DNA from: an uncultured Campylobacter sp.
GTDB taxonomy: Bacteria > Campylobacterota > Campylobacteria > Campylobacterales > Campylobacteraceae
NCBI RefSeq assembly: GCF_938045595.1
Contig: NZ_CALIBB010000123.1
Coordinates: 1-52,971 of the forward strand
DNA: 52,971 nucleotides
Direction: 5' to 3'
The notes under the pieces are model-generated. The model did not search any database. It had not been told where the DNA came from and worked only from the letters and a program-made list of their open reading frames with translations. The first letter of the stretch is position 1, and each line of letters begins with the position of its first letter. The translations under genes were made by a program, and so were the position numbers. Shown piece after piece: positions 16,961-23,323 of this stretch.

Positions 16961-17191
16961 ATGTTTCATGAATACAGAGATTTAATCACTGAGTTAAAAG
17001 GCAAAAACGCGCGATTTGATTCGCTTTTTGAGAAGCACGATGAGCTGGATCACAAGATCGCCGACGCACAAGCCGGCAGAGTGCATATGAGCGATCTGGA
17101 GATCGATGCGATGAAGAAGGAAAAGCTTCGCATAAAAGATGAGCTAGGCACCCTGCTAGCGCAATATAAAGCCGAAAAGGCAGATAAATAA
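16961..17191 (+). CDS. YdcH/DUF465 family small coiled-coil protein
   Basis: MFHEYRDLITELK...FEKHDELDHKI...KKEKLRIKDEL; GGAG RBS. Confidence 0.88.
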   Translation: MFHEYRDLITELKGKNARFDSLFEKHDELDHKIADAQAGRVHMSDLEIDAMKKEKLRIKDELGTLLAQYKAEKADK

Positions 17192-18032: not shown

Positions 18033-18473
18033 CTACTCGAAAACCTTCGCTTCTAAGCCATGTAGCCTTTGCAAGCCGATATCGATATATTCGTTAAGCT
18101 TCTCATTATTTTCCAGCAATTTGTCGTAATAACTCTTGGCTCTTTCTCTCGCGGTCGCATCAGGCTCGATATACTTTAGCCCGCTTTTGAAAAATCCTTT
18201 GGATTCCACAAAATAGATCGAGTGGATCTTCTCGCAGTGCGATAGCCCTGCTTCAGTGTAGTTTAAAATCGATTCGTACGCGATGTTGCCTAACAGCTCT
18301 TGCAGTCTATTTGCGGGATTTTTGAAAAACTCGGCGAACTCCTTATACGGCGTAAAAACCTGATCCAGGTTTTTCATCGCATCGCCGTAGATACCCTTTT
18401 TCAGGCGAAACATCGTCATTTCTTGAGAACTTACAAACTTCTCTATTGCTTTTATCGTATCGTTTTTATTCAC
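18033..18473 (-). CDS. Hypothetical helical protein, possibly a degenerate stand-alone CZB-fold protein
   Basis: GTG start with AAAAGGGA RBS and its own TATAAT (minus strand, 18507-18512). The fold assignment is from recalled similarity only. Confidence 0.7.
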   Translation of the reverse strand: MNKNDTIKAIEKFVSSQEMTMFRLKKGIYGDAMKNLDQVFTPYKEFAEFFKNPANRLQELLGNIAYESILNYTEAGLSHCEKIHSIYFVESKGFFKSGLKYIEPDATARERAKSYYDKLLENNEKLNEYIDIGLQRLHGLEAKVFE

Positions 18474-18607
18474 TGAATTTTCCCTTTTAAAATATGAAAC
18501 GCTCGGATTATATCGTTTGTTTTATAAAAATCCGTTAAAAATCGGTTAAATTTTGCCCTAGCGTTTTAGCTAAGTTTCTTTGAGCGCTTTTTATTAAATT
18601 TCCCGCC

Positions 18608-18961
18608 TCAGCCGCCGCACTTCTCGCACAATCCTCGCACAAGCACACTTTTGACATTTTTTTGTGGCAAAGCTGGCATCGAAATCTCCTCCATTTTATG
18701 GCAGTTTTCGCAGACAAAATACGCTTTTGCGCCGTCGGTGAGCTCATAAAAGCTTTTATGATTATTTTCGCTGGTAATTATCAAATTTTTCTCTTCCAAA
18801 AGCGCTATATTGCGATATATCGTGGTTTTATTAGCACCCGTTTGTTCTACTAGTTCATCGTAGCTTACCGGGCATTTTTTCTCGCTTAGGATCTGCACGA
18901 TCTGCACTCTAAGCGCTGTAGGAGCGATATCGTGACTCGCTAAAAAATCTTTGGGATCCAT
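18608..18961 (-). CDS. Fur-family transcriptional regulator (Zur-like by context)
   Basis: TALRVQI and KTTIYRNIALL winged-helix motifs; two CxxC (CENC, CEKC); divergent from znuA. Confidence 0.88.
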   Translation of the reverse strand: MDPKDFLASHDIAPTALRVQIVQILSEKKCPVSYDELVEQTGANKTTIYRNIALLEEKNLIITSENNHKSFYELTDGAKAYFVCENCHKMEEISMPALPQKNVKSVLVRGLCEKCGG

Positions 18962-19018
18962 TTTACGCCTTTTTTAAAATTTAAGCGATGATAGCGAAAT
19001 TTAGATAAATTTATATTA

Positions 19019-19047
19019 AGTTGCAACTAAGTTGCTTTTGATATACT
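19019..19047 (+). promoter_or_regulatory. Candidate operator (GCAACT-A-AGTTGC) next to the extended -10 TGATATACT of znuA
   Basis: Perfect 6-1-6 inverted repeat at 19023-19035, overlapping palindrome AGTTGCAACT at 19019-19028, and -10 box at 19042-19047. Confidence 0.65.
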
Positions 19048-19075
19048 TCCGCAATTTTTTTTGGAAAGGAATTTT

Positions 19076-20002
19076 ATGAAAAAGCTTATTTTCACGCTTT
19101 TATCAGCTAGTTGCGTAGTATTCGCCAAACCTACGGTCACCACGACCATACTTCCTACGAAGTATTTTGTTGAACAAATAGCAGGTGATACCCTGCAGGT
19201 AAATACGATGGTCGGCAAAGGCGCTGATCCACACACATACGAGCCTAAGCCTTCGGAGATGAAAATGCTAGAAAATAGTGATCTGTATTTTGCAGTCGGT
19301 ATAGAATTTGATGAAGTCTGGCTACCAAAGCTTGCCGCATCGTATCCGAAGATGAAGATAATCCGCACAGAAGATGGCATCACTAAAATGGCTATGGCAG
19401 AGCATCACCATCACGACGAACATGATCATAGCGCGCATCACGATGATCACGATCATGACGCGCATCATGAGCATGGTGACAAAGACCACGAGGCGCACGA
19501 GCACCATCATCATCACGACGGCCTAGACCCACATATCTGGCTCGATCCGCAGCTTGTAAAAATTCAAGCTAAAAATATTAAAGACGCGTTAACCAAACAG
19601 TATCCTAAGGATGCTAAAATTTATGAAGCAAATTTCGATAAATTTGCCAAAAAGCTTGACGAGCTGGACGCTTACGCAAAGCAGAAATTAGCGGGCGTCA
19701 AGGGAAAGAAATTTATGGTTTATCATCCGTCTTGGGGCTATTTCGCGCACCGATACGATTTGGAGCAGATCGCAGTCGAAGTGGAGGGCAAAGAGCCTAA
19801 GCCTGCGGATTTAGCCGAGCTGATCGAGGAAGCCAAAGAGGAAAAGATCAAGGTGATTTTCGTCGCACCGCAGTTTTCCAAAAAGGCAGCACAAACCATC
19901 GCTGCACAAACAGGCGCAAAGGTGATGGAGATTGATCAGCTGCCGCTAGATTGGTATGAGACAATGAAAAAGACGATCGACATTTTCGGAGAAAATTTGT
20001 AG
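19076..20002 (+). CDS. znuA: Zinc ABC-type solute-binding protein (ZnuA/AdcA family) with a His-rich loop
   Basis: Signal peptide; DPHTYEP, DPHIWLDP and YHPSWGYF motifs; His/Asp-rich loop. Confidence 0.9.
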   Translation: MKKLIFTLLSASCVVFAKPTVTTTILPTKYFVEQIAGDTLQVNTMVGKGADPHTYEPKPSEMKMLENSDLYFAVGIEFDEVWLPKLAASYPKMKIIRTEDGITKMAMAEHHHHDEHDHSAHHDDHDHDAHHEHGDKDHEAHEHHHHHDGLDPHIWLDPQLVKIQAKNIKDALTKQYPKDAKIYEANFDKFAKKLDELDAYAKQKLAGVKGKKFMVYHPSWGYFAHRYDLEQIAVEVEGKEPKPADLAELIEEAKEEKIKVIFVAPQFSKKAAQTIAAQTGAKVMEIDQLPLDWYETMKKTIDIFGENL

Positions 20003-20005
20003 TTG

Positions 20006-22132
20006 ATGAAATTTATTAAAATTTTACTTTTATCCGCGATCTTTAGCTCGCGGATATTTGCGTGCGCTCTGTGCGCCCTATACACGCCTACTGCGCACGT
20101 TAGCATTACCCCTGTCGCACAAGACGGCAAGATCGTGAGCCTGCATTTTTCGTGGCTTTTCTCTCAAAATTTTACCGACGTCATAATGCAGACCTACGAT
20201 ATAAATTCCAATGCCAAGCTTGAAAATAGCGAGCTTGCCGAGATAACCAAGGCGATGACCGATTATCTAACCCCCAAAAACTATCTTTGCGAGGCGGAAT
20301 TCTACGATCAAGCGCCAAAAAACGCAAAGCCCGCGCTTAGCAACCTCGTAGGCACGCAAATCAAGGGAAATTTTAAAAACGCAATAAGCCTCGTCAAAAA
20401 GGGCAGACTCGTGTTTGAGTTCGATCAAAAGGTCGGCTTCGAGCTGCGAAACGGCCGCGTTCTTAAAATTTCCATTAACGACGATCAGGGATTTTTCAAT
20501 TTCAAAATGCTTGACGACAAGCCCATTAATCTAGGCGAGGGCTTTGTAGCGAAGCCTAATTCAAATTTAGCCACCACTTTTATAGAATTTAGCGGCGAAA
20601 AGCCAAAGATCGCAGATAAAAAACCGCCAATTTCAGGCGCGCTGGACTCCGATTTAGCGCAGGATAGCCTTGCATCTAGCGAGCAAGGCCTTGCGGGCTC
20701 AGAGAGCAAACTTGCGCAAGGCGGTCAAGATAAACCGAATGCCAGCTCGGCGCGCAAATCAAACCAAAGATCCGTCGGCGACATCGTTTCGGAAGCTGCA
20801 GCAGAGGCGCAAAAAAATATAGCCGCTTCGGATACTATCGCGCAGATTAATAAAGCCGCCAAAAAGGACGCGCAGGTAAAAGGTGGTCCCGCAAATTCCG
20901 ACCGCCTTAGTAGCGAAAGCTTAAAGGTCGCTGCAAAAAACAGCGAAAATGCCGCAGCTTCTTTAGGCGATGATTCAAATTTAGCGCAAAATAACGCGAG
21001 CAAAAACGGCGCCACATCCGACAGCGACGAGATTTCAAGCGAGCAGCACAAAGAGGTCTCGCTGGGATTTGTCGCGCAAAAGACGATGGATTTTATGAAA
21101 AGCCTCAAAACGGCGTTTCGCGCAAGCAGCGAGCATGCAAGCGCAAGCACCATCCTATGGGTCTTGGCGCTTTCTTTCATATACGGCTTTTTCCACGCGG
21201 CGGGTCCTGGGCACGCGAAGCTGCTAACGGCGAGCTATTTCTTAGCCCATGGCGGCAGCTACGTCAAGGCCTTTGGATTTGCCCTTAAAATCGGGCTTCT
21301 ACACGTACTAGGAGCACTCGTTTTAGTAAGCGCGAGCATGTTCGTGCTGCAAAACGTTGCAGGGCTCGTCTCTGCAAACTCCGCCTCGATCACAACGAAA
21401 ATTTCGGCACTTCTGATCATCGTCATAACGGCGCTCATCATCTACGACAAAGCTCGCCGCGTAAGATCGGGCGCCCACCACGATGCGGGCTGCTCCTGCG
21501 CCGCTTGCGCTTCCGCCGCAAATACCTCAGAGACGGGCGCCCACTTAAAAAATACGGCATTTACAAACGCCGGGGATTCCGCTCACGCAGCGTCAAAGAG
21601 CTATAAATTTTCTAAATTTAATATTCAAAGTGACGAATCCGCGCAGCATTTAGATACTGAAAATTCGGGCGCCACAACGGCAGAGCTAAATTCAAATTTA
21701 AATTTAAACGCAAGCCTAGAGGAAAACTCGTCTAGCCAAAACGAGCAAAAACAGACTTTGAATTCTACAAATTCCAAAAACCAAACCTCGTCTCGCTCGC
21801 TACAAAATGGCGCGACTGGCGGTGGCGAGAAAGGGCGAGAGTGGCTTATCGCGCTTGCTGCGGCGCTCGTGCCATGCCCAGGCACGATCCTGATTTTCGT
21901 GCTTGCCTTCAGCCTCGGAAGCTTCGCGCTTAGCGTCGCAAGTGCGCTTTTCATCGGTTTTGGAATGAGCGTCGTGATATTTTTAGCCGCGCTTTTCGGC
22001 GCGAAAGCAAACGAACTAAGCTCAAAGCGGCTCGTAAGCTTGAAGCTATACGTCGAATTTTTGGGGCTTTTCGTGATGTTCGGGCTCGGGATTTTTATGT
22101 ATTTCATCTCAGACAGCCTCAGGATACTGTGA
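20006..22132 (+). CDS. Fusion of a DUF1007-like periplasmic domain and an RcnA/HoxN-family metal transporter
   Basis: Signal peptide then CALC and an EF-hand-like YDINSNAKLENSE. The C-terminal half has YGFFHAAGPGHAK and LVPCPG motifs with multiple TM helices. Confidence 0.8.
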   Translation: MKFIKILLLSAIFSSRIFACALCALYTPTAHVSITPVAQDGKIVSLHFSWLFSQNFTDVIMQTYDINSNAKLENSELAEITKAMTDYLTPKNYLCEAEFYDQAPKNAKPALSNLVGTQIKGNFKNAISLVKKGRLVFEFDQKVGFELRNGRVLKISINDDQGFFNFKMLDDKPINLGEGFVAKPNSNLATTFIEFSGEKPKIADKKPPISGALDSDLAQDSLASSEQGLAGSESKLAQGGQDKPNASSARKSNQRSVGDIVSEAAAEAQKNIAASDTIAQINKAAKKDAQVKGGPANSDRLSSESLKVAAKNSENAAASLGDDSNLAQNNASKNGATSDSDEISSEQHKEVSLGFVAQKTMDFMKSLKTAFRASSEHASASTILWVLALSFIYGFFHAAGPGHAKLLTASYFLAHGGSYVKAFGFALKIGLLHVLGALVLVSASMFVLQNVAGLVSANSASITTKISALLIIVITALIIYDKARRVRSGAHHDAGCSCAACASAANTSETGAHLKNTAFTNAGDSAHAASKSYKFSKFNIQSDESAQHLDTENSGATTAELNSNLNLNASLEENSSSQNEQKQTLNSTNSKNQTSSRSLQNGATGGGEKGREWLIALAAALVPCPGTILIFVLAFSLGSFALSVASALFIGFGMSVVIFLAALFGAKANELSSKRLVSLKLYVEFLGLFVMFGLGIFMYFISDSLRIL

Positions 22133-22372: not shown

Positions 22373-23323
22373 ATGTCGCCTTCTTTGCAAGATGCTATTT
22401 CACAGACTTTAATCGAACAAAAAGCGTGCGCTAGAGTTTTTAATAGATATTACTACCTCAGTATAGCCGCCTTTTTTGCGGTCCTGTTCGTATTAGTGTT
22501 TCTAAACGGCGTTAAAGCAGACACTCCTCTAATAAAAATTGCCGAATTTTCGAGCGTCTTGATCCTTTTTCAGATCTTTTGGATATTTCTTATGCATTGC
22601 GCCAGTCAAGAAAGCGAAGCGGAAATTCGCTACTATAAATTTTACAAAGAGATATTCGTCCGCGCCGTAATAAACGATATAGATGCCAGTTTAAAATACG
22701 ATCCATATACCGGCATGCAAGAAGAGGAATTTCAAAAATTTAGAATTTATAGGAAATCTAGGATCAAAAGCGAGGATCGGATTGCGGGCGCGCACTGCGG
22801 GATTAAATTTAGCCTAAGCGAGGTACATAGTAATGGTAGGTTTTACATGAAAACGGATAATCCGCTCATAGCGGCGATTATGTTGATCAAAATATTCTAC
22901 GATAACTATATGGACTTTGACGGCAACGTACTGATCTGCGAGCTCGCGAAAAAAACCTCGGGTAAAACGATAGTGGTAAGCAGGGAGCTAAACGCCAAGA
23001 TCTTCGGCGAAAAAGAGATGATGGACGATGTGGATTTTATGCGCGATTTTCGCGTGTTTGCGGATGACAAAGTGGAAGCGCGCTATCTGCTAACGCCCGC
23101 GTTTATGGAGCGTCTGCGCGAAATAAATCGCGAAACGAGCGGCGAGTTTAGCTTGAGCGCGGTATTTATGGATGAGCACTTATATCTATTTTTAAAAGGT
23201 GCGCCCGATCTTTTTGAAACTACTCTTTTTGATAGGCCTGCTAGCATAGAGCTCGCGCGCGAATACCAAACGCAGATCCGCAAAATTTTAAGCCTAATCG
23301 AGACACTAAAACTCTCAAACTAG
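22373..23323 (+). CDS. DUF3137-like membrane-anchored protein
   Basis: Two N-terminal TM helices; EDRIAG and FRVFADDKVEARYLLTPAFMERL motifs. Confidence 0.78.
   Translation: MSPSLQDAISQTLIEQKACARVFNRYYYLSIAAFFAVLFVLVFLNGVKADTPLIKIAEFSSVLILFQIFWIFLMHCASQESEAEIRYYKFYKEIFVRAVINDIDASLKYDPYTGMQEEEFQKFRIYRKSRIKSEDRIAGAHCGIKFSLSEVHSNGRFYMKTDNPLIAAIMLIKIFYDNYMDFDGNVLICELAKKTSGKTIVVSRELNAKIFGEKEMMDDVDFMRDFRVFADDKVEARYLLTPAFMERLREINRETSGEFSLSAVFMDEHLYLFLKGAPDLFETTLFDRPASIELAREYQTQIRKILSLIETLKLSN

Follow-up and report, generated by a model that had tools for sequence, protein, structure and literature searches.

Gene content of the locus

The window analysed here (the whole stretch of 52,971 nucleotides, positions 1 to 52,971 of contig NZ_CALIBB010000123.1) belongs to an uncultured Campylobacter sp. 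whose assembly (GCF_938045595.1) comprises 2.39 Mb in 321 contigs and is 95.9% complete. Between positions 18033 and 22132 it carries a divergent locus with a small Fur-family regulator (hereafter REG), a ZnuA-type binding protein, and a fusion of a DUF1007 domain with a NicO-type permease, which an earlier prediction from the sequence had singled out as a candidate non-canonical system for acquiring zinc or another metal. All four open reading frames (ORFs) of this original prediction were found where it had placed them. On the minus strand lie REG (117 amino acids (aa); 18608..18961) and, downstream of it, an ORF of 146 aa (18033..18473). On the plus strand, znuA (19076..20002, with an alternative TTG start at 19061) precedes the fusion gene (20003..22132), which encodes 709 aa. 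The znuA stop codon TAG occupies 20000-20002, with TTG 20003 and ATG 20006 directly next to it, and the predicted gap of three nucleotides between the two genes is correct when the fusion starts at ATG 20006, its probable start.

The product of znuA matched PF01297 with 252.6 bits (cut-off 29; E = 5.7e-75), and its top-scoring NCBIfam model was ZnuA, at 164.8 bits, yet under the equivalog cut-off of 268. It has a signal peptide and a long His-rich loop (EHHHHDEH...HHHHH), in agreement with its earlier description as a His-rich ZnuA-type protein. Its closest solved relative is the ZnuA of Synechocystis (1pq4, E = 1.8e-66), with which the motifs DPHTYEP, DPHIWL and HPSW, bearing the three His metal ligands, align. 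Across 19 orthologues H153 and H217 were invariant, and the first His was neither invariant nor near-invariant. These features point to a periplasmic zinc-binding protein of the ATP-binding cassette (ABC) type (cluster A-I), and it is the sole PF01297 match genome-wide.

The fusion is a single frame of 709 codons that matched NicO (PF03824) above its cut-off (57.9 bits against 27.7, over aa 385-498) and DUF1007 (PF06226) around it (26.1 bits against a cut-off of 27, and 28 bits in a six-frame search), as the predicted joining of a DUF1007 domain to an RcnA/NicO-type permease would have it. PF06226 is annotated on most of the homologues listed, and the N-terminal domain aligns with a DUF1007 protein of the classic HPH type. 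The same architecture in one open frame was present in 57 of 60 other genomes of the genus.

Separation of the binding protein from its probable pump

The core of the original prediction was that ZnuA has no ABC partner and may instead hand its metal to an ATP-independent permease. No ABC partner lies within the locus, and ABC-3 permeases are absent from the whole contig of the window. The genome-wide search for znuBC that had been proposed alongside gave a different picture. ABC-3 permease matches occurred only on contigs C174, C162 and C278, and one of them was strong (234.9 bits, on C174). There, an ABC ATPase gene lies upstream of the permease gene and overlaps it, with no binding-protein gene beside the two; their best NCBIfam models were the zinc permease AztB and ATPase AztA, both below the equivalog cut-offs. 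Because an importer without a binding protein and a binding protein without a pump share one genome, the orphan pump and the orphan binding protein would most simply form one split ZnuA-ZnuCB system. With this znuC-znuB pair and a single ZnuA in the genome, the claim of a ZnuA lacking an ABC partner does not hold. A ZnuBC encoded elsewhere had been named beforehand as one finding that would speak against the prediction; the other, a fusion gene neither co-transcribed with znuA nor metal-regulated, does not apply, the fusion being very probably co-transcribed (to judge by the spacing of the genes) and co-regulated with znuA.

Synteny within the genus indicates how the system came apart. Among 74 related Campylobacter loci taken from named genome records, the divergent string of regulator and znuA-fusion was present in 58; in the other 16 a contig ended or the REG match was missing. 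The full operon, with znuC and znuB following the fusion, was found in 14 of the 74 loci (znuB being seen where the contig reaches), including those of Campylobacter showae and C. portucalensis; the fusions of all 14 are about 35% identical to that of the window. The remaining 60 loci, among them that of a C. gracilis metagenome-assembled genome, encode fusions of at least 74% identity and, within contig limits, share the order argJ-DUF465-146aa-REG, divergent from znuA-fusion-DUF3137-serA. znuC was found 3' of the fusion in none of these 60 close-lineage loci; a DUF3137 gene stands there instead in 46. Five of seven distant congeners, like the 14 loci above, have a methyltransferase gene and REG on one side, divergent znuA-fusion-znuC-znuB with overlapping stop and start codons on the other, and a convergent EamA gene at the end. 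The genes flanking znuCB on C174 match these full-operon flanks, both for the methyltransferase (41% identity, E = 1e-47) and for EamA (49% identity, E = 2e-73). Because the flanks of the remote pump match those of the full operon, the comparison indicates that REG, znuA and the fusion gene once stood between the methyltransferase gene and znuC and, in this lineage, moved as one block to another site.

The methyltransferase gene itself, of the S-adenosylmethionine-methyltransferase-like type, overlaps the end of REG in full-operon congeners (L022 2935-3666 and orthologues) and is probably co-transcribed with it there; in the window lineage it has remained beside znuC (L001 3146-3769). The present neighbours of the module are the DUF465 gene (16961-17191) and the DUF3137 gene (22373-23323), and these flanks are conserved only in the close lineage. 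The 146-aa ORF had no family in Pfam or NCBIfam scans, and its best Atlas score, 0.76, was under the level counted as a lead. It is confined to the close lineage, other congeners with the full operon having the methyltransferase gene after REG, and it probably stands outside the zinc system.

The same separation was observed across the Campylobacterales. Out of a sample of 151 genomes, 35 had the fusion or a split DUF1007/NicO pair, so that both forms are present in the order, and 20 of their loci were read. Three show REG divergent from znuA-fusion-znuCB, six show znuA-fusion without znuCB behind (five of these with REG), two have the order znuA-znuC-znuB-fusion (L117, L118), and two were ended by contig edges. 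The fusion is linked to znuA in 11 of the 20 loci, and the divergent string of REG and znuA-fusion recurs in nine. The neighbourhood, whose conservation had been suggested as a check, recurs in the genus and elsewhere in the order; since the order of genes recurs in 58 of 74 related and nine of 20 order-wide loci, the arrangement is no product of chance. Five genomes of other families have only the REG-znuA-fusion string at the fusion locus, and each of the five carries, far from it, a strong ZnuB together with a ZnuC and no binding-protein gene beside them. A single ZnuA-family gene, the one adjoining the fusion, is present in three of these genomes (G187, G152 and G179). Because each has one such gene only, ZnuA must by this gene content serve the distant pump there; therefore the view of ZnuA as an orphan binding protein is unsupported.

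These data bear directly on the possibility that ZnuA docks on the fusion and passes zinc to the NicO permease without ATP, instead of or beside ZnuCB. In its favour, znuA has a closer link with the fusion than with znuCB: the two genes remained side by side as the operon broke up in the window lineage and, seemingly independently, in other families, and the znuA stop codon abuts the fusion start. Against it, a ZnuCB without a binding protein occurs in every genome tested with this arrangement, that of the window and all five others, and in three of the five the ZnuA adjoining the fusion is the only candidate partner of that pump. The fusion, moreover, has a periplasmic domain of its own and is also found without a nearby znuA. 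When ZnuA (aa 18-308) and the DUF1007 domain (aa 21-200) were modelled as a complex, from separate alignments and with no controls, the score was 0.00, a value that speaks neither for nor against. We regard the hand-off as improbable, and as the core of the original proposal it finds no support, znuC-znuB standing directly 3' of the fusion in relatives. Scarcely better are the chances of a ZnuA with two outlets, which would feed the remote ZnuCB and also dock on the DUF1007 domain of an ATP-independent importer, the whole module being switched by a minimal Zur with only the Cys4 site. If true, this would be a metal counterpart of the TRAP and TTT systems and would explain why znuA stayed with the fusion, and not with the pump, in several independent splits. 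As it stands, the locus is an unusual form of a known zinc-uptake system and not a new transport principle.

The regulator and its candidate operator

REG matched PF01475 with 32.6 bits (cut-off 23.1) and HTH_11 with E = 3e-9, and a profile of seven orthologues matched solved Fur, PerR and Zur proteins, the best being 6dk4 (E = 6e-10). It has an N-terminal winged helix and, in its C-terminal part, two CxxC motifs (C84, C87, C112 and C115); none of these four Cys varies among 17 orthologues drawn from several families. A total of 202 proteins matched it at E<=1e-3. Apart from a few stray names, the named ones are annotated as "Fur family transcriptional regulator" or as "transcriptional repressor", in C. 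fetus, C. hyointestinalis, C. concisus, C. lari, C. coli and others. Accounts of campylobacters usually list Fur and PerR and no Zur, and the other two Fur-family genes of this genome score as Fur and PerR, not as Zur. Our literature search found no publication on a campylobacter zinc regulator, and the A. butzleri genome paper does not refer to Zur, zinc, Fur or PerR.

A candidate operator (19019..19036) separates REG from znuA, with the core palindrome GCAAC-TAA-GTTGC at 19023-19035; a second palindrome, AGTTGCAACT, at 19019-19028 overlaps the core. Three nucleotides after the core lies the probable extended -10 element of the znuA promoter (TGATATACT, 19039..19047, plus strand), as judged from its sequence, and the spacing between box and -10 is preserved in congeners (TATAAT in L093 and L100). 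GCAAC-N3-GTTGC was present in all 16 REG-znuA spacers compared from several families, 14 times exactly and twice with one mismatch; the remainder of the spacer has diverged, and several spacers carry two copies of the box. The genome of the window contains one exact copy in 2.39 Mb, and three further 15-mer sites with at most two mismatches lie on other contigs. Because composition alone would lead one to expect about two exact copies (a rough estimate), the evidence for the operator is its conservation and not its copy number.

In AT-rich genomes of other families the box has four to five exact copies against zero to two for the reversed control. Besides the REG-znuA spacer, it directly precedes the remote znuC in G152, G179 and G123, and in G166 it is found ahead of a second znuACB. 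In G152 and G179 a pair of boxes lies directly upstream of a TonB-dependent receptor of about 700 aa (Plug and barrel; L136 3445-5565 and L138 1415-3526), which is likely a zinc-regulated outer-membrane receptor. One box in G166 (L140 2089-3096) stands beside a 300-aa gene fusing PRA-CH (HisI-type) to GTP cyclohydrolase II (RibA-type). Both are zinc enzymes, and the gene may be a zinc-sparing paralogue. A table of the Vibrio Zur regulon lists znuABC, a TonB-dependent receptor and ribA (PMC9817125), and the boxed genes correspond to what Zur regulons usually contain. Single boxes in L137, L139 and L141 were intragenic and were treated as chance.

The idea of a dedicated, atypical Fur-family repressor for this locus gains from the PF01475 match, from the conserved operator at the znuA promoter and from the Fur- and PerR-like nature of the other two family members. 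From this comparison, REG very probably serves these bacteria as their zinc repressor, acting through a non-canonical box, and the assignment of the locus to metal acquisition, with zinc as the metal, is likewise supported.

Role of the fusion protein and wider meaning

The fusion is predicted to consist of a signal peptide, a periplasmic DUF1007 domain, a disordered linker and a NicO/RcnA-type permease whose six helices are divided by a long central loop, a layout drawn from an alignment of 26 orthologues and from models of aa 1-206 and of the full length (all of the coordinates that follow are on the plus strand). Directly after the signal peptide stands the motif C21-A-L-C24-...-P29-T-A-H32 (20063..20098), in which C21 was invariant and C24 at least 90% conserved among 28 N-terminal domains, and which may form a Cys/His site for metal or, alternatively, hold a lipobox Cys with a free Cys after it. 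Lipobox-like residues precede C21 in nearly all orthologues (20048-20074, aa 16-24; mostly L/I/V at -3 and G/A/S at -1), although six membrane helices also anchor the protein. The DUF1007 domain (aa 28-200; 20084..20602) was modelled as a beta-sandwich with an inserted helix-loop-helix (aa 1-206, mean predicted local distance difference test (pLDDT) score 88.8). The loop between the two helices, 12 residues long, has an EF-hand pattern, D-x-[DN]-x-[DN]-x6-E (D66-x-N-x-N-x6-E77, 20198-20233), shared by all 28 aligned domains and by 141 of the 150 best representatives; through this loop alone, the N-domain profile also draws in multi-repeat proteins.

A low-complexity linker rich in Ser, Ala, Asn and Gln follows (aa 201-354; 20603..21064), specific to the window lineage and with pLDDT below 50 over aa 201-263 and 291-354. 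The permease (aa 355-709; 21065..22129; PF03824) has, in the full-length model, helices at aa 381-488 and 608-702: three helices bearing H398, H404 and H434, then the loop, then three more with P-C-P-G. Invariant in the 26 orthologues are H398 and H404 (in HAAGPGH), H434, and P624-C625 (in PCPGT). The central loop (aa 489-607; 21467..21823) starts with H-x3-C497-x-C499-x2-C502 and continues as a disordered, low-complexity insert. The inserts at aa 201-354 and about 508-607 are absent from the fusions of other congeners, which are 454-521 aa long. Inserts rich in Ser, Ala, Asn and Gln occur in unrelated proteins of this lineage, those of the fusion lying at 20603-21064 and 21524-21823; EamA further has an N-terminal extension of about 187 aa (L001 55-615), and the methyltransferase beside znuC (L001 3146-3769) a low-complexity insert of about 50 aa.

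Searches with the N-domain profile returned 2557 cluster representatives at E<=0.001. Among the best 150 of these, 88 were fused (at least 389 aa), 85 of them with CxxC in the first 60 aa and none with HPH, and 62 were shorter, 47 with CxxC and four with HPH. These profile matches indicate that the fused CxxC form is a sizeable subfamily and no one-off. Two loci of another family (L115 5950-8676 and L121 5411-8252) combine a NicO-only gene, a fused CxxC-type gene and a third short ORF, with no nearby znuA; the third ORF of L115 is a classic split DUF1007 with HPH at the mature N-terminus.

Comparisons of structure assigned no fold to the N-terminal domain. The sequence profile of the fusion had only an EF-hand-like match in the PDB (E = 0.046), and Foldseek found no PDB match to the DUF1007 model at E<=0.001. 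The best VIA-align match, to ligand-gated-channel ectodomains (Z 8.0), was inside the background of the tool and was discarded.

The abundance of Cys in the fusion suggests one way of reading it, as a thiol/redox device in which a CcdA/DsbD-like domain (PCPG) keeps the periplasmic CxxC reduced: C21 is invariant, C24 nearly so, C625 is invariant within P-C-P-G, and the loop adds C497, C499 and C502. NicO and DsbD-type proteins are related. The HAAGPGH motif, however, is typical of the metal-transporter branch, and together with the invariant H398, H404 and H434 it points there; the genomic context is one of zinc genes, and none of the loci read showed a thioredoxin-like partner. A redox role is therefore highly improbable.

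Only slightly less remote is an RcnA-like exporter or nickel/cobalt transporter that would share the znuA promoter, for example as a safety valve. The Pfam NicO match and a weak NCBIfam match to "nickel/cobalt efflux transporter" would fit it, as would the public records that name the fusion a nickel/cobalt transporter or efflux system, although these names conflict among themselves (DUF1007 family protein, HoxN/HupN/NixA nickel/cobalt transporter, nickel/cobalt efflux system, metal ABC permease, TauE/SafE). The RcnA model itself (NF007454), whose cut-off is 195, gave 20.5 bits. The fusion gene is probably transcribed together with that of an uptake binding protein, under an operator that in other genomes also stands before znuCB and TonB-dependent receptors, which fits import under scarcity and not export, and the related ZevAB is reported to be tied to zinc limitation (PMC3417392).

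A role in zinc delivery without transport has somewhat more in its favour and is nonetheless unlikely: the fusion would mainly be a zinc chaperone of the periplasm held at the membrane, comparable to ZinT or AztD, whose DUF1007 domain collects the metal for ZnuA or ZnuB and whose membrane part serves as anchor or regulator. Its gene lies between znuA and znuC with overlapping frames in many species, and 3' of znuB in the same string in L117 and L118; the DUF1007 model also has a weak fold likeness, at background level, to two zinc binders, ZrgA and PA4063 (Z 5.4 and 5.7). These fold matches are within the range for unrelated sandwiches, however, the fusion also occurs away from znu genes, and the invariant His and Cys in the permease helices, kept order-wide, argue for a working metal path.

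The reading that we prefer, with a probability of about 0.6, combines a zinc-responsive repressor, a ZnuA feeding the remote ZnuCB, and the fusion as an accessory zinc importer akin to ZevAB. On this view a zinc-uptake system has come apart: the locus holds its regulated half, and its ABC pump lies elsewhere. REG would act as a zinc-responsive repressor here and, more widely, in Campylobacterales, binding TGCAAC-N3-GTTGCA where it abuts the -10 element of znuA, so that ample zinc would switch off znuA and the fusion gene. ZnuA would deliver zinc to the only ZnuB/ZnuC of the genome, on C174, and znuCB, having lost the operator in the window lineage, would probably be expressed without zinc control. 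The periplasmic domain of the fusion, with its Cys/His motif and EF-hand-like loop, would capture metal and pass it to its own six-helix permease, lined with His and Cys, without using ATP and in parallel with ZnuA-ZnuCB. A zinc-importing role for the fusion is suggested because it shares the znuA string and a zinc-type operator, has metal-ligand residues in its membrane part, is kin to ZevAB and has no ZIP transporter beside it in the genome (none was found in a search of the 95.9% complete assembly).

The comparison directly establishes which genes are present, their synteny, the translocation and the conservation of the operator; zinc as the effector, repression, and the substrate and direction of the fusion are deduced from these. 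Several observations weigh against this reading, the whole of which draws on comparative evidence. The permease family is named for nickel and cobalt, and its characterised member RcnA is an exporter. The fusion also stands alone in places: two of the seven distant congeners have it with no znuA nearby, as do seven of the 20 order-wide loci with the fusion or the split pair. zevAB was reported to be under FNR and not zinc control (PMC3417392), and the likeness of the fusion to ZevAB is at the level of domain families. REG lacks the residues usual at the regulatory site as well as a large part of the dimerisation domain, has 24 residues between its CxxC motifs, carries AKAYF in Campylobacter where more distant orthologues have HxHF before the first CxxC, and scored 17.5 bits against the NCBIfam Zur model (cut-off 167). 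Near the remote znuCB (L001) no 18-mer match to the box was found at up to three mismatches. Because znuCB carries no box, its co-regulation with ZnuA appears lost in the genome of the window, and only znuA and the fusion gene would therefore answer to zinc there. Campylobacter genomes have one to three exact boxes each, always including the REG-znuA spacer, and the second exact box of a complete close relative (G049) is intragenic and was treated as chance; the wider set of genes resembling a Zur regulon is thus suggested by other families of the order and not by Campylobacter.

Like the ZnuABC/Zur system of the E. coli type, the module has a ZnuA with a His-rich loop and three His motifs, a ZnuB/ZnuC pair, and a divergent Fur-family repressor gene with a palindromic operator over the promoter. 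It differs in that the pump genes of the window lineage are unlinked and without an operator, and that an extra transporter gene lies inside the operon. REG is about 50 residues shorter than a typical Zur (171 residues in chain 4mtd) and fails the Zur model, and its operator TGCAAC-N3-GTTGCA is unlike Zur boxes, which are AT-rich. In the RcnAB system of E. coli, a NicO-family membrane protein whose central loop is rich in metal ligands acts together with a periplasmic protein; the fusion is similar in its NicO six-helix part, ligand-rich central loop and periplasmic part, and unlike RcnA in its very low score against the RcnA model and in a context that points to zinc uptake, the opposite direction of transport.

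A periplasmic beta-sandwich that binds metal and sits on a secondary metal transporter is also seen in HupE/UreJ-2 with an "Ang-1" domain (PDB 9gce, copper bound), which, going by what its entry gives, differs from the fusion in metal and membrane family. It was the second-best fold match of the DUF1007 model, with values within background (Z 7.5, root-mean-square deviation 5.3 over 133 residues, 5% identity). ZrgA and PA4063 of the ZrgABCDE type are Zur-regulated periplasmic beta-sandwich zinc binders that act with a transporter (PMC9820375); they belong to DUF2796, a family different from that of the fusion, and go with a MacB-like ABC pump. The Vibrio ZrgD and ZrgE, considered as a DUF1007/NicO pair, were ruled out, being DUF2607 and DUF3299.

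The closest parallel is ZevAB of Haemophilus influenzae (HI1249/HI1248), which like the fusion has a periplasmic and a membrane component. We take ZevA and ZevB to be members of DUF1007 and NicO/COG2215. They are two separate genes, whereas the system of the window is one polypeptide; the N-terminus of the fusion has CxxC where classic split DUF1007 proteins have HPH; and the fusion gene, unlike zevAB, is joined to znuA and ancestrally to znuCB, in a module probably under a Fur-family repressor. When zinc is severely restricted, H. influenzae is reported to require ZevAB (PMC3417392).

ZnuABC, Fur-family zinc repressors and ZevAB are all known already. In the literature searched, three elements appear to be undescribed: the truncated Fur-family zinc regulator of Campylobacterales with its TGCAAC-N3-GTTGCA box, a fused CxxC-type ZevAB homologue inside znu operons, and the repeated separation of znuA and the fusion from znuCB. 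The comparison provides a concrete candidate for the zinc regulator of Campylobacter, with a precise operator and a small predicted regulon, and places, across an order, a ZevAB-type carrier with inconsistent database names in operons for zinc uptake. The DUF1007/NicO pair, so far poorly understood, gains a firm physiological context, together with a fused form that lends itself to structural studies. In campylobacters that live with a host, the scavenging of zinc matters for survival when the host withholds the metal.

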